Shown piece after piece: positions 19,295 to 46,498 of a stretch of 64,000 nt of DNA. The stretch is from the NCBI RefSeq assembly GCF_011045215.1, contig NZ_CP049201.1. One strand, given 5' to 3'. Numbering within the stretch: the first letter of the stretch is position 1; each line of letters begins with the position of its first letter. Made by a program: the position numbers and the translations under genes. The notes beneath the pieces are model-generated. The model was not told the origin of the DNA, ran no database searches, and saw nothing but the letters and a program-made list of their open reading frames with translations. The DNA comes from Escherichia coli (GTDB taxonomy: Bacteria; Pseudomonadota; Gammaproteobacteria; Enterobacterales; Enterobacteriaceae).

Positions 19295-19966
19295 ATGCAG
19301 TACCCGATTAACGAGATGTTCCAGACCCTGCAAGGTGAGGGTTACTTTACCGGCGTCCCCGCCATTTTTATTCGTTTACAGGGATGCCCGGTTGGCTGTG
19401 CCTGGTGCGACACCAAACACACCTGGGAAAAGCTTGAGGATCGGGAAGTCTCCCTTTTCAGCATTCTGGCGAAGACCAAAGAGAGTGATAAGTGGGGGGC
19501 GGCGAGCAGTGAAGATTTGCTGGCTGTCATTGGTCGCCAGGGATACACCGCGCGGCATGTGGTGATTACGGGTGGTGAGCCTTGCATTCATGATTTGCTA
19601 CCACTGACAGATCTGCTCGAAAAGAACGGTTTTAGCTGCCAGATCGAAACCAGTGGTACTCATGAGGTACGCTGCACACCGAATACCTGGGTTACCGTAT
19701 CACCAAAGCTGAACATGCGCGGCGGCTATGAAGTGTTGTCACAGGCACTGGAGCGAGCCAACGAAATCAAGCATCCAGTGGGACGCGTACGTGATATTGA
19801 AGCACTGGATGAACTTTTGGCGACGCTGACCGATGATAAACCGCGAGTCATTGCACTGCAGCCGATTAGCCAAAAGGATGATGCCACACGTTTGTGCATT
19901 GAAACCTGCATTGCGCGTAATTGGCGTTTGTCGATGCAAACCCATAAATATTTAAATATTGCCTGA
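19295..19966 (+). CDS. queE: 7-carboxy-7-deazaguanine synthase QueE (radical SAM)
   Basis: 223-aa ORF MQYPINEMFQTLQGEGYFTGVPAIFIRLQGCPVGCAWCDTK...; CxxxCxxC-type cluster. Confidence 0.92.
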   Translation: MQYPINEMFQTLQGEGYFTGVPAIFIRLQGCPVGCAWCDTKHTWEKLEDREVSLFSILAKTKESDKWGAASSEDLLAVIGRQGYTARHVVITGGEPCIHDLLPLTDLLEKNGFSCQIETSGTHEVRCTPNTWVTVSPKLNMRGGYEVLSQALERANEIKHPVGRVRDIEALDELLATLTDDKPRVIALQPISQKDDATRLCIETCIARNWRLSMQTHKYLNIA

Positions 19967-20304
19967 TTAAACATTTATAAGCGTTATAAATGGGTGGAAC
20001 CTGTAAAGACTTCTACTCATTTATATTCTTTGTCGTCTCTGAAAAACCTCCATTTTGCCCATCCTGAATTAATCATTATCATTCTCTACAAATTCTGTGG
20101 CGTTAATTTTTCGCTGGAGTGAAAATTATTGCGGTAAAGTTTGGTAGATTTTAGTTTGTATAGAGTTATTTTAAATATTTACCTTTTTAATCAATGGGTT
20201 AAGTGCTCTTTAACATGATGGATGTGTTTTTTGTGTGATACTGTAAAGTTGGTAGATTGTGACTGGCTTATAAAATCATTAATTAATAATAGGTTATGTT
20301 TAGA
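19967..20304 (+). promoter_or_regulatory. AT-rich CRISPR leader of the queE-proximal array
   Basis: Very AT-rich non-coding stretch immediately upstream of the first repeat; the degenerate repeat is at the far end of the array. Confidence 0.5.
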
Positions 20305-20577
20305 GAGTTCCCCGCGCCAGCGGGGATAAACCGTCGTCGAGAATCAGCACGAATGCCGCAACTGCGAGTTCCCCGCGCCAGCGGGGATAAACCGTGTGTA
20401 CGTCAGGCCCGTACCAGCATACCCCTGAGTTCCCCGCGCCAGCGGGGATAAACCGCCTACTCTCCTATTGCAGCAATTGCTGCGTCAGTGTTCCCCGCGC
20501 CAGCGGGGATAAACCGGGTACAAAAGAGGCCCCATTCTGGCAGGGCTCGAGTTCCCCGCGCCAGTGGGGATAAACCA
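20305..20577 (+). CRISPR. CRISPR array, type I-E repeats, 5 repeats / 4 spacers
   Basis: 29-bp repeat GAGTTCCCCGCGCCAGCGGGGATAAACCG at 20305, 20366, 20427, 20488 (GTG variant), 20549 (degenerate terminal). 32-bp spacers: tcgtcgagaatcagcacgaatgccgcaactgc; tgtgtacgtcaggcccgtaccagcatacccct; cctactctcctattgcagcaattgctgcgtca; ggtacaaaagaggccccattctggcagggctc. Confidence 0.97.
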
Positions 20578-21046
20578 CCATATAACCCGTTATCTCTTTC
20601 TCAAGTTTTTATATTAGCTGTACTTGTAATAAGCAACATATCCACGTAACACCTCATGTTCAAAATAGTTCCCCATGCTAGATAAGTTCACAATTATCGA
20701 TACAAAAAATTAAATTTAATCAAAGTGTTATTTGTATAATTCTTAAGCCGTTAAGAAATTTTAATCTATTATTTTTTTAATATTAATTAATGCCTGTTAA
20801 TTTTTTCTTTAGTATAACAGTGTATTTTTTAAGCTTGTTATTCATTGATTAAGTAATAAATCTGGAAATTTGTCTTTGTTTTGAGGCTAATGAGTGGTTT
20901 TACATAACCGCCTCTATACGCTGTTGATGAATAGTTCTTATGAATAAAGATATCCAGTTCATACTTTAAGTGAAAATTGATAAAGTGCGATTCGTATTGT
21001 CTTTTATTCTAAAGACATCGAGTGTAGTTAATATTCCTTGTAAAAA

Positions 21047-21168
21047 CAGGGATAAACCGAACTAGTTAAAGTTTTTATTATGTTCCCTGCATCAGCGGGG
21101 ATAAACCGGACTTGTTATCATTTTTTAAGTTGTCGAACTTATGTTCCCCGCGCCAGCGGGGATAACCA
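21047..21168 (+). CRISPR. degenerate CRISPR remnant (one partial and two mutated repeats)
   Basis: cagggataaaccg (21047-21059); atgttccctgcatcagcggggataaaccg (21080-21108); atgttccccgcgccagcggggataacca (21141-21168); one 32-bp and one 20-bp spacer-like segment; abuts the ygcE 3' end. Confidence 0.8.
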
Positions 21169-21214
21169 TTCAGGTATGTTCAGGCCGGGCAGTTTCCCGC
21201 CCGGTCTTCCTCAC

Positions 21215-22693
21215 TTACGCATTCGACCAGCTCTGGATCGAATCCGCATTTCCCAATTCCCCATGCATCACTTCATACGATTTTTTCAGAATCACATCAG
21301 TATGTTTGGTTAGGTCTTTGAAAATGCCTTTATTCATCGCGTCGTAGCGTTTGGCATTGCTCTCAATCGGTATAAAGATATCTTTCACGCGAACCATTTT
21401 ATCGACAGCCGTTGCGTAATCCGGGTATAGCCCCAGACCTACCGCGGTATTAATCGCTGCCCCCAGACTTGCACAACCGTTAATGGCGTTACGGCGTGCC
21501 GGAAGGTTGAACACGTCGGCAAAAATTTGCATAAACAGATCGCTGTTCGAACCGCCGCCAGTAATGATCACATGCTTTGCAAAGTGATTCATTTCATTAC
21601 ACATATTGTCGTAATTGTTCTTCAGCGTCAGCGCCACGCTTTCCAGTATCGAACGATATATCCATGCGTAATCCATGCTGGAATCAAAGCCGATCATAAT
21701 CCCACGTTTGTAGGGTTCCCACGGGTTGGTCAGCCAGTCCAGCACCGTCATCAGACCATTACAGCCAGGCGGCACACAAGAAGCTTTTTTGTTGAGCAAA
21801 TCTTCCGGTGAAAGATCCTGTGCTTTGGCATCCTGAATTAACGACTCGCCTAACATGTCGCGCAGCCAGCTCACCGTCCACATGCCTTTGCGAATACCGT
21901 AACCTTCATACAGCAATGTTTGCGGAATAGAAGACATAATCGGCCAGTACGCCACCGGATCTTTCGGCAAGGCTTTGCCATTCATCATCAGCGCGATATA
22001 AGTACCGAGTGAAATCACCGCCGTTTCATCATCCAGTAATCCGGCCCCCAGAGCTTCTACCGGTTTATCACTGGTGGTACAAACAACCGGCAGCCCTGCC
22101 GGGAAATGTGTCGCCAGCGCGGCTTGAGGTGTGATCTGTCCAAGAACAGTGCCTGGCATTTGCACATCAAACAGCATATGACGGGGGATATTAAACTTCT
22201 CCATGACTGCGGCATCTTCACTCCATGCCCAGCTCTTATAATCCACCGGCCACTGACCAAAATAGTTGGCGATATTGTCTTTAAACTCGCCGGTTAAGCG
22301 ATGCGTCAGATAACCCGAAAAAGAGGTGACATATGCCACGTCAGGATTAGTGTGTTCGTAGGGACGCGTTACGCGTGCATCCTGCCAGCTAATCAATGGC
22401 GCAGCTGGCGTGCCATCGGCTTTCAATAACGCACGGCAGCAACGGATGGATCCCAGACCAATACCGACAATATCTTCTTTATTCCCGGCAAACTGACTCA
22501 TCAAATCGTGACCGGCAAAACATAATGATGCCCATAAATCGTCGTCAGGATGTTCTGCAGTATCGGCATCTGGCGTGTGCATCGGCTGCAATAAGCCTTT
22601 ACCTTCGCAAACCACATTACCTTCCAGATCGTACATCACCACTTTTGTGCTCTGACTTCCGCCATCAATCCCTATGATGTATTTTTTCGACAT
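21215..22693 (-). CDS. ygcE: FGGY-family carbohydrate kinase
   Basis: 492-aa ORF with MSKKYIIGIDGGSQSTKVVMYD N-terminus typical of FGGY kinases. Confidence 0.85.
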   Translation of the reverse strand: MSKKYIIGIDGGSQSTKVVMYDLEGNVVCEGKGLLQPMHTPDADTAEHPDDDLWASLCFAGHDLMSQFAGNKEDIVGIGLGSIRCCRALLKADGTPAAPLISWQDARVTRPYEHTNPDVAYVTSFSGYLTHRLTGEFKDNIANYFGQWPVDYKSWAWSEDAAVMEKFNIPRHMLFDVQMPGTVLGQITPQAALATHFPAGLPVVCTTSDKPVEALGAGLLDDETAVISLGTYIALMMNGKALPKDPVAYWPIMSSIPQTLLYEGYGIRKGMWTVSWLRDMLGESLIQDAKAQDLSPEDLLNKKASCVPPGCNGLMTVLDWLTNPWEPYKRGIMIGFDSSMDYAWIYRSILESVALTLKNNYDNMCNEMNHFAKHVIITGGGSNSDLFMQIFADVFNLPARRNAINGCASLGAAINTAVGLGLYPDYATAVDKMVRVKDIFIPIESNAKRYDAMNKGIFKDLTKHTDVILKKSYEVMHGELGNADSIQSWSNA

Positions 22694-37010: not shown

Positions 37011-37274
37011 TTAATGCCGGATAAATTAAACGCCTCTGTCAGAAATGATGGGGGCGTTTTTATTTTGCGAGCAGCATTCCTGATTTTAAACGTGAACGCC
37101 GCTGGAAGAATTATCAGGTATAGAATGGCGTCGGGTGCTTGAGGCTGTCTGGCGTTAAGCATTCGCGAGGTTCCAGATGGACAAAAGCCCCAGGCGATAT
37201 TTCTATCAACCTGAGGCCAGCGTTCGAACCTAAGCAATTCGAATGTTAGTCTCTTCTTTGCAGGGAGGCAAGAC

Positions 37275-37427
37275 ATGCTGACAAAATATGCCCTTGTGGC
37301 AATCATCGTACTGTGTTGTACAGTACTGGGATTCACGCTGATGGTAGGCGACTCGTTGTGTGAGTTGAGTATCAGAGAACGTGGTATGGAGTTTAAGGCT
37401 GTTCTCGCTTACGAATCGAAGAAGTAG
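37275..37427 (+). CDS. Hok/Gef-family type I toxin (50 aa)
   Basis: Not in the ORF track. ATG at 37275 preceded by GGGAGG; [50 protein letters not shown] has one TM helix and the Hok signature (CE..IR...E..A.LAYES). Same intergenic position as the K-12 hokX/sokX locus, as far as I recall. Confidence 0.75.
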
Positions 37428-37619: not shown

Positions 37620-40319
37620 ATGCGTAAATATCCTTTAAGTTTACTGAAGGATAAAAATATTGTGACTTTCTTTGATTTCTGGGGAAAAACCCGACGCGAC
37701 GAGAAAGAAGGGGGTGACGACTATCACCTTCTTTGCTGGCATTCGCTGGATGTGGCCGCGATGGGCTATTTAATGGTTAAAAGAAATTGCTTCGGGCTGG
37801 CTGATTATTTTCGTCAATTAGGGATTTCTGACAAGGAACAGGCGGCTCAATTTTTCGCCTGGTTGTTGTGCTGGCACGATATTGGAAAATTTGCCCGCTC
37901 ATTTCAGCAACTTTACCTGCACCCACAACTCAAGGTTCCGGAAGGCGCAAGAAAGAATTACGAAAAGATCTCTCATTCAACGCTGGGCTACTGGTTGTGG
38001 CATCATTATTTAAGTGAATGCGAAGAATTGCTTCCTGCCTCTTCACTCTCTACTCGCAAACTTAAACGTGTAATAGCGATGTGGATGCCCATGACTACCG
38101 GGCATCATGGTCGGCCCCCTGACCGTATTGATGAACTGGATAATTTTCTGCCTGAAGACAAAGTTGCCGCGCGAGATTTTCTCCTTGAAATCAAGGCACT
38201 GTGTCCGCTCATAGAGATTCCCACATTCTGGGATAATGACGAGGGAGTTGAACTTTTAAAACAACTTTCCTGGTATATCTCTGCAACAGTCGTACTTGCA
38301 GACTGGACGGGTTCGTCAACGCGATTTTTTCCACGCGTCGCACACCCAATGGATATTAAAGATTACTGGCAGAAAACTTTAGTTCAGGCTCAAAACGCCT
38401 TAACCGTCTTTCCTCCAAAAGCAGAAACCGCACCTTTCACCGGAATTAATACGCTGTTTCCTTTTATTGAGCACCCGACACCATTACAGCAAAAGGTGCT
38501 GGATCTGGATATCAGCCAGCCAGGGCCACAGTTATTTATTCTGGAAGACGTGACTGGCGCAGGTAAAACAGAAGCGGCGCTTATCCTGGCGCACAGGTTG
38601 ATGGCTGCGAGGAAAGCACAGGGTTTGTTTTTTGGCCTGCCAACAATGGCAACGGCCAATGCCATGTACGATCGGCTGGTCAAAACCTGGCTTGCTTTCT
38701 TTTCGCCAGAATCCCGCCCCAGCCTGGTGCTGGCACACAGCGCCCGTACATTAATGGAACGCTTTAATGAATCACTCTGGTCCGGTGATTTAGTCGGGTC
38801 AGAAGAACCGGATGAACAAGCGTTCAGTCAAGGATGTGCAGCCTGGTTTGCCGACAGTAACAAGAAGGCTTTACTGGCTGAAATTGGCGTCGGCACGCTG
38901 GATCAGGCGATGATGGCAGTGATGCCGTTTAAACATAATAATCTGCGGCTTCTGGGGTTGAGTAACAAAATCCTGCTGGCTGATGAGATCCACGCCTGTG
39001 ACGCTTACATGTCGTACATTCTTGAAGGGTTGATTGAGCGACAGGTGCGTGGCGGAAACAGCGTCATTTTGCTTTCTGCTACGTTATCTCAACAGCAGCG
39101 CGACAAACTTGTCGCCGCCTTTGCGCGTGGCACAGAGGGCCAGCAAGAAGCTCCGTTCCTGGAAAAGGATGATTACCCCTGGCTGACGCATGTCACGAAA
39201 TCCGATGTGCATTCGCACCGGGTAGCGACGCGCAAAGACGTTGAGCGTAGCGTGAGCGTGGGTTGGCTTCATAGCGAACAAGAATGTATTGCGCGTATCG
39301 AATCAGCGGTAAGTCAGGGGAAATGCATCGCCTGGATCCGGAATTCTGTCGATGACGCTATTAAGGTTTATCGTCAGTTACTTGCCCGCGGCGTCATTCC
39401 TGCTTCCAGCCTTTCACTTTTTCATAGCCGCTTTGCTTTTAGCGATCGCCAGCGAATTGAAACGGAAACGCTGGCACGCTTTGGTAAAAATTGTAGTTTA
39501 AAAAGATCATCTCAAGTCATTGTTTGTACACAAGTAATTGAGCAAAGTGTGGATATTGACCTGGACGAAATGATCTCCGACCTGGCCCCCATTGATTTGC
39601 TGATCCAGCGAGCGGGGCGATTACAACGGCATATTCGCGATATTAATGGTCAGTTAAAGCGTGATGGAAAAGACGAGCGTTCCCCTCCTGAATTGCTGAT
39701 TCTGGCCCCCGTCTGGGACGACTCTCCGGGTGACGAATGGTTTGGCAGTGCGATGCGTAACAGCGCATATGTCTACCCCGATCATGGGCGAATCTGGCTG
39801 ACGCAGCGAGTATTGCGTGAGCAAGGCGCTATTCAGATGCCACACGCAGCCCGGCTTCTTATTGAATCCGTCTACGGTGAGGACGTGGTAATGCCGGAAG
39901 GATTTGCCCGCAGCGAGCAGGAGCAAGTGGGCAAATATTACTGCGATCGCGCAATGGCTAAAAAGTTTATGCTGAACTTCAGGCCCGGCTATGCCGCCAA
40001 TATCAACGATTACCTCCCGGAAAAGCTGTCGACACGTCTGGCTGAAGAGTCTGTTTCCCTGTGGCTGGCTACCTGTATTGACGGTGTGGTGAAGCCTTAT
40101 GCCAGCGGTGCTCACGCATGGGAAATGAGCGTTGCCAGAGTGCGTCGAAGCTGGTGGAAAAAACATCGGGATGAATTTTCTTTACTGGAAGGGGAAGCGT
40201 TCAGGCAGTGGTGTGTTGAACAACGGCAAGATCCGGAGATGGCAAACGTGATTTTAGTCACTGATGACGAAAGTTGCGGGTATTCGGCCAGGGAGGGATT
40301 GATTGGCAAGGTTGATTGA
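37620..40319 (+). CDS. cas3: type I-E CRISPR-associated helicase/nuclease Cas3
   Basis: 899-aa ORF; HD domain (HSLDVAAMG...WHDIGKF), Walker A-like (TGAGKTEA), DEAH-like (LADEIHACD), C-terminal domain; first gene of the cas operon. Confidence 0.93.
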   Translation: MRKYPLSLLKDKNIVTFFDFWGKTRRDEKEGGDDYHLLCWHSLDVAAMGYLMVKRNCFGLADYFRQLGISDKEQAAQFFAWLLCWHDIGKFARSFQQLYLHPQLKVPEGARKNYEKISHSTLGYWLWHHYLSECEELLPASSLSTRKLKRVIAMWMPMTTGHHGRPPDRIDELDNFLPEDKVAARDFLLEIKALCPLIEIPTFWDNDEGVELLKQLSWYISATVVLADWTGSSTRFFPRVAHPMDIKDYWQKTLVQAQNALTVFPPKAETAPFTGINTLFPFIEHPTPLQQKVLDLDISQPGPQLFILEDVTGAGKTEAALILAHRLMAARKAQGLFFGLPTMATANAMYDRLVKTWLAFFSPESRPSLVLAHSARTLMERFNESLWSGDLVGSEEPDEQAFSQGCAAWFADSNKKALLAEIGVGTLDQAMMAVMPFKHNNLRLLGLSNKILLADEIHACDAYMSYILEGLIERQVRGGNSVILLSATLSQQQRDKLVAAFARGTEGQQEAPFLEKDDYPWLTHVTKSDVHSHRVATRKDVERSVSVGWLHSEQECIARIESAVSQGKCIAWIRNSVDDAIKVYRQLLARGVIPASSLSLFHSRFAFSDRQRIETETLARFGKNCSLKRSSQVIVCTQVIEQSVDIDLDEMISDLAPIDLLIQRAGRLQRHIRDINGQLKRDGKDERSPPELLILAPVWDDSPGDEWFGSAMRNSAYVYPDHGRIWLTQRVLREQGAIQMPHAARLLIESVYGEDVVMPEGFARSEQEQVGKYYCDRAMAKKFMLNFRPGYAANINDYLPEKLSTRLAEESVSLWLATCIDGVVKPYASGAHAWEMSVARVRRSWWKKHRDEFSLLEGEAFRQWCVEQRQDPEMANVILVTDDESCGYSAREGLIGKVD

Positions 40320-40408
40320 GATGCCTGCGACAGAGACTCTCTGAATAGTTGATACACCGAAAAGGATGGATAACCGACCTGGATGGTCTTTTTTACGAGA
40401 GGATGCGT

Positions 40409-41971
40409 ATGAACTTGTTTTCACTTCTGACAACCCCGTGGTTGCCCGTTCGTTTTAAAGACGGAACGACAGGCAAACTGGCGCCAGTCGATCTGGCTGA
40501 TGAAAATGTTGTCGATATCGCCGCGCCGCGAGCAGATTTACAAGGTGCGGCATGGCAGTTTTTGCTGGGGCTACTACAAACCAGCTTTGCGCCAAAAGAT
40601 CATCGTCGTTGGGATGATATCTGGGAAGACGGACTGGAAGCTGAAAAGCTAAGGGAAGCATTGCTGTCATTAGAACATGCTTTCCAGTTTGGCCCAGATT
40701 CCCCTTCATTTATGCAGGATTTTGAGGCGCTCACGGGAGATAAAGTTCAGGTCGCTTCGCTACTGCCTGATGTTCCCGGCGCTCAAACGACGAAGTTTAA
40801 TAAAGACCATTTTATCAAGCGTGGTGTAACGGAATATCTGTGCCCCCATTGTTTAGCATTGGCCTTGTTCTCTTTACAGTTGAATGCACCAGCGGGTGGC
40901 AAAGGCTATCGCACCGGTTTGCGCGGCGGTGGGCCGATGACCACTCTGATTGAATTACAGGAATATCAGGGCAATCAACAAACACCCTTATGGCGCAAAC
41001 TGTGGCTCAACGTGATGCCGCAGGATGAAGCCGACTTACCGCTACCCCAAAAATTTGACGATCTGGTTTTCCCCTGGCTTGGCCCGACGCGTACCAGCGA
41101 ACTGGCCGGTGCGGTGGTAACCGATGATCAGGTTAATAAACTCCAGGCGTACTGGGGAATGCCACGGCGTATTCGTATTGATTTTAATACCACCACAGTC
41201 GGCAACTGCGATATTTGCGGTGAGCAGAGCGACGCGCTTCTGAGCCTGATGACGACCAAAAATTACGGCGCTAACTATGCCATGTGGCAGCATCCCTTAA
41301 CGCCTTACCGTGTACCACTTAAAGAGGGCGGCGAGTTTTACTCAGTTAAACCACAACCGGGCGGTTTAATCTGGCGCGACTGGTTAGGCCTTATCGAAAC
41401 GGGGAAATCAGAAAACAATACGGAACTTCCCGCGCTGGTGGTGAAACTCTTTAATGCCAGCAGTCTGAAACAGGCAAAAGTGGGCCTGTGGGGATTTGGT
41501 TATGATTTTGACAACATGAAAGCGCGCTGTTGGTACGAGCACCATTTCCCGCTTCTGCTCAATAAAAAAGAAGGCCAGATACCGAAACTGCGGCTGGCTG
41601 CGCAAACGGCTTCACGGATTCTGAGTCTGTTACGGAGTGCATTGAAAGAAGCGTGGTTCTCCGATCCAAAAGGTGCACGGGGTGATTTCAGTTTTGTGGA
41701 TATCGACTTCTGGAACAAAACTCAGCATCGCTTCCTGAGGTTAGTGCGCCAAATTGAAGAAGGTCAGGATGCGGATGAATTACTCGGCAAATGGCAAAAG
41801 GAAATTTGGTTATTCGCACGTCAGGATTTTGACGAGCGTGTATTCACCAATCCTTATGAGCCCGTTGATTTGGAACGCGTCATGACCGCGCGCAAGAAAT
41901 ATTTTACAACATCGGCGGAGAAGCAAAGTGCTAAAGCCGCCAGGGAGAAAAAGCAGGAGGCTGCTGAATGA
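40409..41971 (+). CDS. casA: Cascade large subunit Cse1 (CasA)
   Basis: ATG at 40409 (MNLFSLLTTPWLPVRF...; alternative ATG at 40403; track TTG 40349); about 520 aa; position and size match Cse1; clearly divergent from the K-12 CasA sequence as I recall it. Confidence 0.88.
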   Translation: MNLFSLLTTPWLPVRFKDGTTGKLAPVDLADENVVDIAAPRADLQGAAWQFLLGLLQTSFAPKDHRRWDDIWEDGLEAEKLREALLSLEHAFQFGPDSPSFMQDFEALTGDKVQVASLLPDVPGAQTTKFNKDHFIKRGVTEYLCPHCLALALFSLQLNAPAGGKGYRTGLRGGGPMTTLIELQEYQGNQQTPLWRKLWLNVMPQDEADLPLPQKFDDLVFPWLGPTRTSELAGAVVTDDQVNKLQAYWGMPRRIRIDFNTTTVGNCDICGEQSDALLSLMTTKNYGANYAMWQHPLTPYRVPLKEGGEFYSVKPQPGGLIWRDWLGLIETGKSENNTELPALVVKLFNASSLKQAKVGLWGFGYDFDNMKARCWYEHHFPLLLNKKEGQIPKLRLAAQTASRILSLLRSALKEAWFSDPKGARGDFSFVDIDFWNKTQHRFLRLVRQIEEGQDADELLGKWQKEIWLFARQDFDERVFTNPYEPVDLERVMTARKKYFTTSAEKQSAKAAREKKQEAAE

Positions 41972-42504
41972 GTATTGTAAAAGAGGAGCACAAAGCCACG
42001 CTGCGCAAATGGCATGAGGAATTGCAGGAGAAACGCGGCGAACGTGCCAGTCTGCGGCGTAGTACGACGGTTAATGATGTTTGTCTGACGGATGGATTTC
42101 GCCTGTTTCTGAAGAACAGACAAATAAAGTGGCAGGATGAACCTGAATGGCGTATTACCGCACTGGCGCTGATAGCCGCACTTAGCGCTAATGTTAAAGC
42201 CATTGATGAACGGCTGCCTTTTGCTGCGCAGCTGGCGGCGGTAATGTCAAAGGGGCGTTTTACTCGCCTGTCGGCAGTAAAAACACCGGATGAATTACTG
42301 CGCCAGTTACGCCGCGCAGTCAGATTATTAAACGGTTCCGTTAATCTTGACTCTCTGGCAGAGGGTGTCTTCCGCTGGTGCCAGGAGAGCGACGATCTGC
42401 TCAATCATCACCGCCGTCATCAGCGGCCAACCGAATTTATCCGTATCCGCTGGGCGCTGGAATATTACCAGGCTGGCGACGCCGATAACGAACAAAATCA
42501 ATAA
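41968..42504 (+). CDS. casB: Cascade small subunit Cse2 (CasB)
   Basis: 178-aa helical, basic ORF overlapping the casA stop. Confidence 0.88.
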   Translation: MSIVKEEHKATLRKWHEELQEKRGERASLRRSTTVNDVCLTDGFRLFLKNRQIKWQDEPEWRITALALIAALSANVKAIDERLPFAAQLAAVMSKGRFTRLSAVKTPDELLRQLRRAVRLLNGSVNLDSLAEGVFRWCQESDDLLNHHRRHQRPTEFIRIRWALEYYQAGDADNEQNQ

Positions 42505-42515
42505 AGGACTATCTC

Positions 42516-43571
42516 ATGACGACATTTATTCAGCTTCATTTGTTAACCGCTTACCCTGCAGCCAACCTTAACCGTGATGACACCGGAGCGCCGAAAACCG
42601 TGGTCCTGGGTGGAGCAACGCGACTGCGCGTTTCCTCGCAAAGTCTGAAACGTGCGTGGCGCACTTCTGCACTTTTTGAACAGGCACTGGCGGGCCATAT
42701 TGGTATTCGCAGTGGGCGTATTGCGCGTGAGGCGGCAACGATCCTGATTGAGAAAGGCATCGAAGAGAAAAAAGCCATCGAATGGGCGGCAAAAATTGCG
42801 GATTATCTTGGGAAAGCTAAAAACGACAAAAAACCAAAAGATCCGCTCACTAACGCCGAAACTGAACAATTAGTCCATATCAGCCCGGCAGAATTTGACG
42901 CCGTAAAAGCGCTGGCCCATCAACTGGCCGAAGAAAAGCGCGCGCCAAAAGAGGAAGATCTCGCTTTGTTACGTAAAGATCGCATGGCGGTAGATATCGC
43001 TATGTTTGGTCGTATGCTGGCGAATAAACCCGAATTTAATGTTGAAGCCGCCTGCCAGGTCGCGCATGCATTTGGTGTCAGTGAAACGATTGTCGAAGAT
43101 GATTTTTTCACCGCCGTTGATGATTTGCGCCAGGCTTCTGAAGATGCCGGTGCCGGGCATCTTGGTGAAACCGGATTCGGTTCTGCGCTGTTCTACACCT
43201 ATATCTGCATCGATAAAGATCTGCTGGTCGAAAACCTCGGCGGTGACGAAGCGTTAGCTAATCAGACCTTGCGCGCCTTTACGGAAGCCGCACTTAAAGT
43301 CTCCCCAACCGGCAAACAGAACAGCTTTGCCAGCCGTGCCTACGCCTCCTGGGCGCTGGCAGAAAAAGGGACTGAACAACCACGCTCTCTGGCGGCGGCT
43401 TTCTATGAACCCATTAATGGCACCCGGCAGTTAGATGTGGCGGTGCAGCGTATTACAACGCTTCGCGAAAATATGAATACGGTCTATGAACAGAAGACCG
43501 AATGCGCAAGCTTTGACGTGATGAACAAACAGGGAAGCATGAAGGACGTGCTGGACTTTATCTGCGCGTAA
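42516..43571 (+). CDS. casC: Cascade backbone subunit Cas7 (CasC)
   Basis: 351-aa ORF MTTFIQLHLLTAYPAANLNRDDTGAPK... (conserved Cas7e N-terminus). Confidence 0.92.
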   Translation: MTTFIQLHLLTAYPAANLNRDDTGAPKTVVLGGATRLRVSSQSLKRAWRTSALFEQALAGHIGIRSGRIAREAATILIEKGIEEKKAIEWAAKIADYLGKAKNDKKPKDPLTNAETEQLVHISPAEFDAVKALAHQLAEEKRAPKEEDLALLRKDRMAVDIAMFGRMLANKPEFNVEAACQVAHAFGVSETIVEDDFFTAVDDLRQASEDAGAGHLGETGFGSALFYTYICIDKDLLVENLGGDEALANQTLRAFTEAALKVSPTGKQNSFASRAYASWALAEKGTEQPRSLAAAFYEPINGTRQLDVAVQRITTLRENMNTVYEQKTECASFDVMNKQGSMKDVLDFICA

Positions 43572-43581
43572 GGGGCGGCTA

Positions 43582-44328
43582 ATGAGCCAATATTTGATTT
43601 TTCAGCTTCATGGGCCAATGGCATCCTGGGGCGTCGATGCCCCCGGCGAAGTGCGTCATACCCATGAACTGCCTTCGCGCTCAGCATTGCTGGGGCTGCT
43701 GGCTGCCGGGGTAGGGATTCGGCGTGATGATACCGAACGATTAAACGCGTTTAACCGCCACTATTCACTGGTGGTTTGCGCCAGCCGTAACCCGCGCTGG
43801 GCACGGGATTATCACACGATCCAGATGCCAAAAGAGGTGCGTAAAGCGCGTTATTTCAGCCGTCGCGAAGAGTTGAGCGACCCTGATCTTCTGAGCGCGA
43901 TTATCTCCCGGCGCGACTACTACACCGACGCCTGGTGGATGGTGGCGGTGGCAACAACAGCCGATGCGCCTTACAGCCTCGAACAGTTGCAGGGCGGTTT
44001 ACGCCATCCAGTTTTTCCTCTTTATCTGGGGCGAAAAAGTCATCCGCTGGCATTACCACTTGCGCCGTTACTGCTCGAAGGCAACGCGTCTGATGTTTTA
44101 CGTAACGCATATCACCAGTATCAGGAGCATTTCCACGACCTGAAAATCGCACTCCCGAAACTTCAGGATGAATGCTGGTGGGAAGGGGAGCACGACGGCC
44201 TGGTCGCGAGCAAAATATTGCGCCGCCGGGATGTTCCTTTAAATCGTCAGCAATGGCTGTTTGGGGAACGCACCGTCAATCAGGGGCCGTGGCTCAGCAA
44301 GGAGGAACCATGTACCTCTCAAGAATAA
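43582..44328 (+). CDS. casD: Cascade subunit Cas5 (CasD)
   Basis: 248-aa ORF MSQYLIFQLHGPMASWG... (Cas5e N-terminus). Confidence 0.9.
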   Translation: MSQYLIFQLHGPMASWGVDAPGEVRHTHELPSRSALLGLLAAGVGIRRDDTERLNAFNRHYSLVVCASRNPRWARDYHTIQMPKEVRKARYFSRREELSDPDLLSAIISRRDYYTDAWWMVAVATTADAPYSLEQLQGGLRHPVFPLYLGRKSHPLALPLAPLLLEGNASDVLRNAYHQYQEHFHDLKIALPKLQDECWWEGEHDGLVASKILRRRDVPLNRQQWLFGERTVNQGPWLSKEEPCTSQE

Positions 44329-44956
44329 CCTTACATACCGGCCAGCTTTCGCCTGCGCAGTTGCTGCATCTGGTGGAGCGCGGGGAATATGTGATGCATC
44401 AGTGGCTGTGGGATCTCTTCCCTGGCGGCAAAGAAAGGCAATTTCTTTATCGTCGGGAAGAACTCCAGGGCGCGTTTCGCTTTTTTGTACTGTCGCAGGA
44501 ACGCCCGGCGGAAAGTGAAACGTTCACCATCGAATGCCGGTCATTTGTGCCCGAGCTGCGTACCGGACAACAACTTTGTTTCAACCTGCGGGCGAATCCA
44601 ACAATCTGTAAAGCGGGCAAGCGCCACGATCTGCTGATGGAGGCGAAACGGCAGGTGAGGGGGCAGGCGGAAGGAAGTGATGTCTGGTTGCATCAACAAC
44701 AGGCGGCGCTGGACTGGCTGGCAGCGCAGGGGGAGAGAAGCGGTTTTACACTGCTGGATACCTCGGTTGATGCCTACCGACAACAGCAACTGCGGCGGGA
44801 AAACTCCCGGCAACTGATCCAGTTCAGTAGCGTGGATTATACGGGGATGCTTACGGTCACCGATCCCGGGTTATTTCTGCAACGTCTCAGTCAGGGGTAT
44901 GGCAAAAGCCGCGCGTTCGGCTGTGGTCTGATGCTGATCAAACCCGGAGCAGAGGC

Positions 44957-44960
<4 letters not shown>
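44310..44960 (+). CDS. casE: crRNA endoribonuclease Cas6e (CasE)
   Basis: ATG at 44310 after AGGAGG (MYLSRITLHTGQL...), 216 aa; the track ORF begins upstream inside casD. Confidence 0.9.
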
Positions 44961-46170
<1,210 letters not shown>

Positions 46171-46266
46171 GTTATGTGTTCTTTAAAAATAAGGAAATGT
46201 TTGAATTTAGTTGGTAGATTGTTGATGTGGAATAAATTTGTTTAAAAACAGATATGTATGCTTAGT
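46171..46266 (+). promoter_or_regulatory. AT-rich CRISPR leader (cas2-proximal array)
   Basis: About 95 bp of AT-rich sequence between the cas2 stop and the first repeat. Confidence 0.6.
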
Positions 46267-46477
46267 GTGTTCCCCGCGCCAGCGGGGATAAACCGGTGCA
46301 TAAAAAATGATACCCCAGCGTTTCGTTGTGTTCCCCGCGCCAGCGGGGATAAACCGATTGAAATAGATCTCCCCGACATTAACGAACAGTGTTCCCCGCG
46401 CCAGCGGGGATAAACCGGGCGCACTGGATGCGATGATGGATATCACTTAGAATTCCCCGCCCCTGCGGTAGAACTCC
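46267..46477 (+). CRISPR. CRISPR array, type I-E repeats, 4 repeats / 3 spacers
   Basis: GTGTTCCCCGCGCCAGCGGGGATAAACCG at 46267, 46328, 46389, and a degenerate terminal repeat (gaattccccgcccctgcggtagaactcc) at 46450. Spacers: gtgcataaaaaatgataccccagcgtttcgtt; attgaaatagatctccccgacattaacgaaca; ggcgcactggatgcgatgatggatatcactta. Confidence 0.97.
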
Positions 46478-46498
46478 CAGCTCCCATTTTCAAACCCA

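Follow-up and report, generated by a model that had tools for sequence, protein, structure and literature searches.

A degenerate three-repeat array beside ygcE in Escherichia coli, very probably CRISPR2.2, is unusually strongly conserved

The type I-E arrays of Escherichia coli are CRISPR2.1, next to cas2/iap, CRISPR2.3 and CRISPR2.2 (PMC3903273, PMC3737337). CRISPR2.2 and CRISPR2.3 are located between ygcE and ygcF, 0.5 kb apart (PMC3903273), and leaders have been assigned to CRISPR2.1 and CRISPR2.3 only (PMC3903273, PMC3737337). The spacers of CRISPR2.2 have been termed invariable (PMC4489801) and the array is kept unchanged in strains lacking cas genes, such as BL21 (PMC3737337). Touchon & Rocha (2010) handled CRISPR2.2 as the leader-distal part of ‘CRISPR2’, and a conserved non-coding sequence of ~0.5 kb within CRISPR2 was described in 18 genomes (PMC2886076). 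The E. coli CRISPR literature has contained both CRISPR2.2 and its 0.5-kb AT-rich separator since 2010. On conservation of the array it goes no further than the terms ‘invariable’ or ‘highly conserved’ and offers no reason. One study using CRISPRCasFinder did not detect CRISPR2.2 in any strain (PMC7546912), and PGAP annotates the neighbouring CRISPR2.3 only, never CRISPR2.2.

We analysed a 64-kb window (the whole stretch of E. coli DNA under study, 64,000 nucleotides), which contains both flanks of the CRISPR-II locus, a complete cas operon and three arrays. The neighbourhood of the array beside ygcE is laid out as follows.

19295–19966, + strand: queE (ygcF), an ORF whose homologous CDS is annotated queE in RefSeq; flanks the CRISPR-II locus
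19967–20304, + strand: leader 2.3 of the main array, AT-rich (30% GC); PMC3903273 places the leader here
20305–20577, + strand: CRISPR2.3, the array nearest queE and still intact, with 5 repeats and 4 spacers; PGAP marks it as ‘CRISPR’ in other genomes
20578–20885: AT-rich sequence of 0.5 kb between the arrays, distal part; hypervariable, changing at the neutral rate
20666–20686, + strand: further repeat relic (AGTTCCCCATGCTAG...), decaying at present
20935–21030, + strand: conserved block directly upstream of the array beside ygcE, holding hairpin H0 (20998–21017)
21185–21204: GC-rich hairpin CCGGGC-N8-GCCCGG between the last repeat (r3) and the ygcE stop codon, conserved across Escherichia
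21215–22693, − strand: ygcE, FGGY-family carbohydrate kinase (RefSeq annotation of homologues), convergent with the arrays
37620–46170, + strand: complete type I-E cas operon (cas3, cse1, cse2, cas7, cas5, cas6e, cas1, cas2)
46267–46478, + strand: CRISPR2.1, adjoining cas2, 3 full repeats and a degenerate terminal repeat

All eight Cas proteins matched NCBIfam (e.g. casA_cse1, 613 bits; casE_Cse3, 291 bits). CRISPR2.1 is very short despite the complete cas operon, its three full repeats being GTG-type. The repeats of CRISPR2.3 are GAG-type apart from the fourth (20488), which is GTG, and the last is degenerate (CAGTGGGG...ACCA). A match to the sok antitoxin RNA at 37133–37290 on the + strand (Rfam RF01794, 111.7 bits, E = 1.4e-24) suggests a toxin-antitoxin locus of the hok/sok type, ~330 bp upstream of the cas3 start codon.

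The third array, adjoining ygcE at 21031–21168, is built from three type I-E repeats, all of them degenerate, with a 20-nt and a 32-nt spacer between them, as follows.

21031–21059, + strand: repeat r1, ATATTCCTTGTAAAAACAGGGATAAACCG, 18/29 against the consensus, heavily decayed, hairpin predicted
21060–21079, + strand: spacer a, 20 nt, AACTAGTTAAAGTTTTTATT, invariant in 8 strains
21080–21108, + strand: repeat r2, 24/29 against the consensus, hairpin retained with one G-U pair
21109–21140, + strand: spacer b, 32 nt, with an internal 6-bp palindrome at 21126–21141
21141–21168, + strand: repeat r3, GATAACCA, one A short, the terminal repeat of the whole ygcE–queE locus

This interval is very probably CRISPR2.2, a short array without a leader that belongs to the CRISPR-II locus of E. 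coli, with the history and properties described below. Judged from later papers by the same group, it is the same object as the CRISPR2.2 of the Diez-Villasenor et al. (2010) nomenclature. The two agree in their position between ygcE and queE/ygcF, their distance of 0.5 kb from CRISPR2.3, their type 2/I-E repeats and their lack of a leader, as well as in having three repeats and two invariant spacers (PMC4489801, PMC3903273); a further paper (PMC10910852) supports the assignment. The window copy does not differ in kind from the published array, the only variant being a C at the loop site of r3 (GCGCCAG in place of the GCGTCAG of K-12-type strains). The feature was thus already known and the array itself adds nothing new. 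An initial annotation of the window, made from the sequence alone, did not recognise it as a named and published feature and amounts to a correct rediscovery of CRISPR2.2.

The mutated repeats that this annotation had placed at 21047–21168 were recovered, at those coordinates, both by reading the sequence and in a mismatch scan, and no match to the I-E repeat with three or fewer mismatches occurred in any of 100 shuffles of the window. It was also right in assigning the array to the I-E repeat family, as a third array in addition to CRISPR2.3 and CRISPR2.1. Its count of one partial and two full-length repeats was correct, with one refinement. Two repeats are indeed near full length: r2 (over 21082–21108, GTTCCCTGCATCAGCGGGGATAAACCG) has three mismatches, C>T and GC>AT, and r3 (21143–21168, GTTCCCCGCGCCAGCGGGGATAACCA) lacks one A of ATAAACC, matching the I-E consensus GAGTTCCCCGCGCCAGCGGGGATAAACCG at 26/28 positions with one gap. 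The ‘partial’ repeat (CAGGGATAAACCG, 21047–21059) is real but constitutes the 3′ end of r1, a full-length decayed repeat. Eight of the eleven differences between r1 and the consensus are GC>AT. Its last 11 nt (GGGATAAACCG), which contain the source of the 5′ handle (ATAAACCG), are exact; an exact copy of this 11-mer has a chance expectation of ~0.03 in 128 kb, and it was found 49 nt from the next repeat.

With 29-nt repeats, the normal spacer of 32 nt and the spacer-like segment of 20 nt were both confirmed. The r2-to-r3 unit is 61 bp long, which fits 29 + 32, and the r1-to-r2 unit, at 49 bp, departs from this length. Spacer a and the beginning of spacer b agree at 12/17 positions (21060–21076 versus 21109–21125), TTAT precedes both r2 and r3, and each of these repeats starts with ATG rather than GAG. 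The likeness of the spacers and their common TTAT/ATG context suggest that the r2 and r3 units originated by local duplication and not by two separate acquisitions.

We then compared the array across E. coli. The 145-bp interval occurred at a coverage of at least 80% in 4039/5426 complete genomes, which excludes an assembly artefact. When aligned with the ygcE–queE arrays of other strains, as the annotation had proposed, it proved to be the same array, with identity to the window over CRISPR2.2 of at least 99% in 3173 of the 4159 genomes carrying it. The same level of identity was reached over the 145 bp just upstream (20886–21030) in 3698/4150 genomes, over the distal gap (20640–20784) in only 7/3847 and over the functional leader 2.3 in only 1/4084. 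Strains of the K-12 type, O157:H7 and other phylogroups carry an identical CRISPR2.2 except for the single C/T site in the r3 loop, such that 1/138 sites was polymorphic among eight diverse strains. For the whole block at 20935–21168, 1/234 sites was polymorphic versus 48/215 four-fold sites of ygcE (five strains; Fisher test, P = 6e-16), and the distal gap (20578–20885) had 52/304 polymorphic sites among eight strains. The ~95 bp upstream of CRISPR2.2 (20935–21030) are nearly invariant and, across genomes, closer to the window than leader 2.3 is. The CRISPR-II locus is missing altogether from some genomes, namely SCU-484 and SCPM-O-B-8794; in the former, a sucrose (scr) locus abuts ygcE, as in PMC11251922.

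Relatives outside E. coli were retrieved by a YgcE search with one genome per species. In E. whittamii, leader 2.3 is directly joined to a single repeat, ending in GATAACCA and adjoining ygcE. E. albertii has three repeats with the same terminal GATAACCA ending beside ygcE, and the B2 strain CFT073 has two repeats with the same terminal repeat in that position. This single array, CRISPR2.2-3, shares with the window its terminal repeat and the 3′ junction with ygcE; in it, leader 2.3 runs straight into one to three repeats, without the 0.5-kb AT-rich sequence and without r1, r2 or spacers a and b. Because the terminal repeat is common to E. albertii, E. whittamii and B2 strains, the missing A of r3, which had been read as a mark of decay, represents the ancestral degenerate state of the terminal repeat of this locus and not recent decay.

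Strain E69 provided a more distant comparison, differing from all E. coli, B2 included, at 18–20% of ygcE third codon positions; no further E69-like genomes were found among RefSeq E. coli. In E69 the 0.5-kb sequence is present together with r1, r3 and spacer b, and the 49-bp unit (spacer a + r2) is missing. Since E69 carries the 0.5-kb sequence together with parts of CRISPR2.2, the split arrangement is older than E. coli, and the decayed array has stayed nearly constant from then on. Between the window and E69, 4.5% of CRISPR2.2 sites differ, with r1 identical at 29/29 positions. The difference was 15% in the proximal 145 bp, 8% in the block at 20935–21168 (versus 27% at neutral sites) and 28.4% in the distal gap, the last equal to that of ygcE four-fold sites (27.4%). 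Divergence of the array and the block from the outgroup is therefore three to six times below that of neutral sites.

The only turnover seen was the occasional loss of a 49-bp or 61-bp unit, probably through recombination between the array’s own repeats. Strain 134 has a 61-bp unit deleted, and a contig from a metagenome, whose allele is an ordinary E. coli one, has lost the 49-bp unit (spacer a + r2) independently of E69.

The initial annotation had proposed that the array is eroding in situ, with a possible ancestral leader, here taken to be the ~470-bp AT-rich stretch before it. That the repeats are degenerate, mostly by GC>AT changes, that the upstream DNA is AT-rich like leaders and that ~95–145 bp beside r1 are conserved, as leader-proximal sequence often is, would all fit such a history. 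The separation itself was given correctly, the distance from the end of the last CRISPR2.3 repeat (20577) to 21047 being 469 bp at 27.1% GC. Ongoing erosion is contradicted by an array that is invariant across ~4,000 genomes and nearly so in the outgroup lineage, that has 1/138 polymorphic sites among eight strains and 4.5% divergence from E69 against 27–28% at neutral sites, whose spacers are invariable (PMC4489801) and whose missing A is ancestral. Nor did the gap resemble a leader: Smith-Waterman scores against the two known leaders (2.1 and 2.3) were 22 and 16 and did not exceed the averages for shuffled sequence (23.5 and 20.8), whereas the proximal 100 nt of leader 2.3 do resemble leader 2.1 (46171–46266), a score reached in 1/300 shuffles. 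Leader homology of the gap was on this basis rejected. Overall, the mechanism proposed in that annotation is mostly unsupported and we regard it as highly improbable. The comparisons with other strains and with E69 instead indicate that the decay of CRISPR2.2 is ancient and has been frozen, and is not under way now.

Spacer acquisition at r1 was not seen, the same two spacers recurring in ~4,000 genomes, and no sigma-70 match of at least 9/12 was present in 20886–21030 or inside the block at 20935–21168. Given the lack of leader likeness, the lack of a sigma-70 match and the invariable spacers, a leader in the adaptation sense has no support. A local promoter may still exist; by eye, only an 8/12 sigma-70 candidate with an extended −10 (TTCATA-N17-TAAAGT) was recognised near 20957–20985. 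In the account we favour, the last repeat of CRISPR2.2 is the ancestral terminal repeat of the locus, both spacers are fixed and the array, which has no recognisable leader, would take up no new spacers and play no part in adaptation. We infer this absence of adaptation activity from the literature and from the invariance of the spacers.

Decay that is actually in progress was observed in the gap, where repeat relics are polymorphic between E. coli lineages. The relic at 20666–20686 scored 19.4 bits against the repeat consensus, versus 12.0 ± 1.9 in shuffles (2/300 reaching it); the K-12 allele gives a higher score (23 bits, 0/100), and EDL933-type (O157-type) alleles have lost the relic. In E69, a different relic lies exactly 61 nt after the last intact CRISPR2.3 repeat (2/100 shuffles). 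Decayed array makes up ~140 bp or more at the start of the gap. A broader version of this, in which the whole 0.5 kb consists of about seven fully decayed repeat-spacer units and CRISPR2.3, the gap and CRISPR2.2 were once a single array whose middle has rotted, is conceivable although we lean against it. Both relics are in keeping with it, as is the spacing between r1 and the last intact repeat (482–489 nt, or 7.9–8.0 units of 61 nt), although indels in both lineages weaken this agreement in length. Mutation in E. coli is AT-biased and a GC content of 27% is close to the outcome of mutation alone, which would also fit. An array-wide 61-nt phase signal was absent from the gap, with phase 0 ranking 45–47 of 61, and nothing repeat-like was found between 20690 and 21030. 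Origin of the 0.5 kb from a mobile element was rejected: the sequence had no match in the phage collection and no terminal inverted repeats, and its sole matches in the plasmid collection were mislabelled E. coli chromosomes. Three ‘plasmids’ in PLSDB (4.8–4.9 Mb) are E. coli chromosomes, and the ‘viral’ contig IMGVR_UViG_2531839665_000019 in IMG/VR holds the chromosomal CRISPR2.2 region.

Mutation of the last repeat at its 3′ end and oldest spacers common to all strains are found at the trailer ends of arrays generally, and CRISPR2.2 is alike in both. Unlike such trailer ends, it lies 0.5 kb away from the active array and is conserved beyond the neutral rate. Trailer-end clonality alone leaves this conservation unexplained. 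A functionless relic should drift and the block at 20935–21168 does not, so that ‘inert fossil’ cannot be the whole story and some constraint or function would seem to lie behind the conservation.

Targets for the two spacers were sought in the window and in sequence collections. Neither spacer had a PAM plus seed match on either strand of the 64-kb window, both cas promoter regions included. Two candidate sites were rejected. The first, at the cse1 start codon (40409–40423, in the region 40409–40444), matched the start of spacer b at 10/12 positions next to ATG, a valid I-E PAM, which is at chance level, and the match is absent from K-12-type casA. The second, upstream of cas3 (37568), matched at 14/20 positions without a PAM, also at chance level. 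Among phages, the best E-value for spacer b was 0.3; two viral contigs, AT-rich and unrelated, contained the exact 20-mer of spacer a but no PAM next to it, at about the chance expectation. No significant protospacer was therefore found for either spacer.

The consensus Cas6e hairpin (7-bp stem, 4-nt loop) is predicted for each of the three repeats, with energies of −7.9, −12.1 and −15.1 kcal/mol for r1, r2 and r3, respectively. In r1 the hairpin has been kept through double changes of C9-G18 to U-A and of C11-G16 to U-A, plus one G-U pair. Its retention was rejected as proof of selection, as decay by GC>AT transitions only would keep the pairing in 126/792 arrangements (16%). The + strand RNA at 20990–21172 folded better than shuffles (z = −5.2; − strand, z = −2.5), with five consecutive stable hairpins predicted: H0, r1, r2, the spacer-b palindrome and r3. 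Besides the predicted Cas6e hairpin of every repeat, the 8-nt handle sequence is retained in r1 and r2. Processing of CRISPR2.2 by Cas6e is therefore conceivable in principle: a transcript across the array, by read-through from CRISPR2.3 or from a local promoter, could be cut by the Cas6e encoded in the window and would give up to two crRNA-like RNAs starting with AUAAACCG. No report of transcription of CRISPR2.2 or of its processing into crRNAs was found in the literature searched.

Close counterparts are the CreR/CreA elements, degenerate mini-CRISPRs giving crRNA-like regulatory RNAs, e.g. the type I-E CreR of Salmonella enterica, which resemble CRISPR2.2 in their degenerate flanking repeats, short spacer-like segment and conservation; in these elements, the first repeat conserves the 8-nt 5′-handle part and the second conserves the hairpin (10.1101/2023.03.10.532045). 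CRISPR2.2, perhaps with the upstream block as its promoter, might by analogy be a maintained regulatory mini-array with an intact 5′ handle and a 20-nt spacer, through which Cascade would bind a partly matching chromosomal site without cutting it. The pattern reported for Salmonella CreR recurs here, with r1 keeping the exact 3′ 11 nt (5′ handle) and r2 the 3′-handle hairpin (10.1101/2023.03.10.532045), and spacer a is short at 20 nt. The retention of all hairpins, the G-U pairs, which favour the crRNA-sense strand in the folding scores above, and the strong sequence constraint would likewise fit, and I-E crRNA-like arrays with two or three spacers exist elsewhere (10.1101/2024.10.29.618823). 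Unlike CreR/CreA, CRISPR2.2 lies outside the cas locus (~16 kb from cas3 at 37620 and ~19 kb from cse1), has no PAM-flanked, seed-matching target in the 64-kb window and is retained unchanged where cas genes are missing, as in BL21 (PMC3737337). Together with the 16% expectation for r1 hairpin retention under plain GC>AT decay, this makes a CreR-type role doubtful in our view, and very much so.

Conservation in strains without cas genes would agree with a Cas-independent role of the block at 20935–21168, either as a structured non-coding RNA or as a barrier or terminator where the transcripts of CRISPR2.3 and ygcE converge, the repeat hairpins having been co-opted. Conservation of the block is far above neutral and the DNA on both sides is more variable. 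In addition to there being five consecutive hairpins, three alleles preserve H0 by way of one compensatory double change (U-A to C-G), seen in the E69 lineage, and two wobble changes. Set against this, no Rfam family was matched at gathering thresholds, relaxed searches returning sub-threshold noise only (CRISPR-DR28, 19 bits), and the block contained neither an intrinsic-terminator signature on either strand nor a sigma-70 match of at least 9/12. Covariation was not significant: all pairs were kept (100%), yet 89/500 shuffles reached the score, with only four distinct sequences available. Coding was rejected as well, as a 31-aa ORF (20970–21065) had 7/8 changes non-synonymous in E69 and ORFs starting at the ATG of r2 or r3 were absent or antisense in other lineages. 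A Cas-independent role is accordingly unlikely on present evidence.

Taking these possibilities in their general form, 20935–21168 would be a selected functional non-coding element, acting either as a crRNA-like guide array, in which the fixed spacers of 20 and 32 nt would lead Cascade to a conserved target in the host, or as a co-opted structured RNA or transcription barrier; we consider this decidedly unlikely. Our preferred reading remains that of CRISPR2.2 as an ancient, frozen array under some form of constraint.

The one unexpected result of the analysis is how strongly the sequence of this relic, and of the ~95 bp preceding it, is constrained. At face value junk, CRISPR2.2 is among the most conserved non-coding stretches of its neighbourhood. 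It also carries a caution, as a conserved array can escape PGAP and, in one study, CRISPRCasFinder (PMC7546912). If the constraint does reflect function, CRISPR2.2 would be an unrecognised crRNA-like or co-opted RNA element in the best-studied E. coli CRISPR system.
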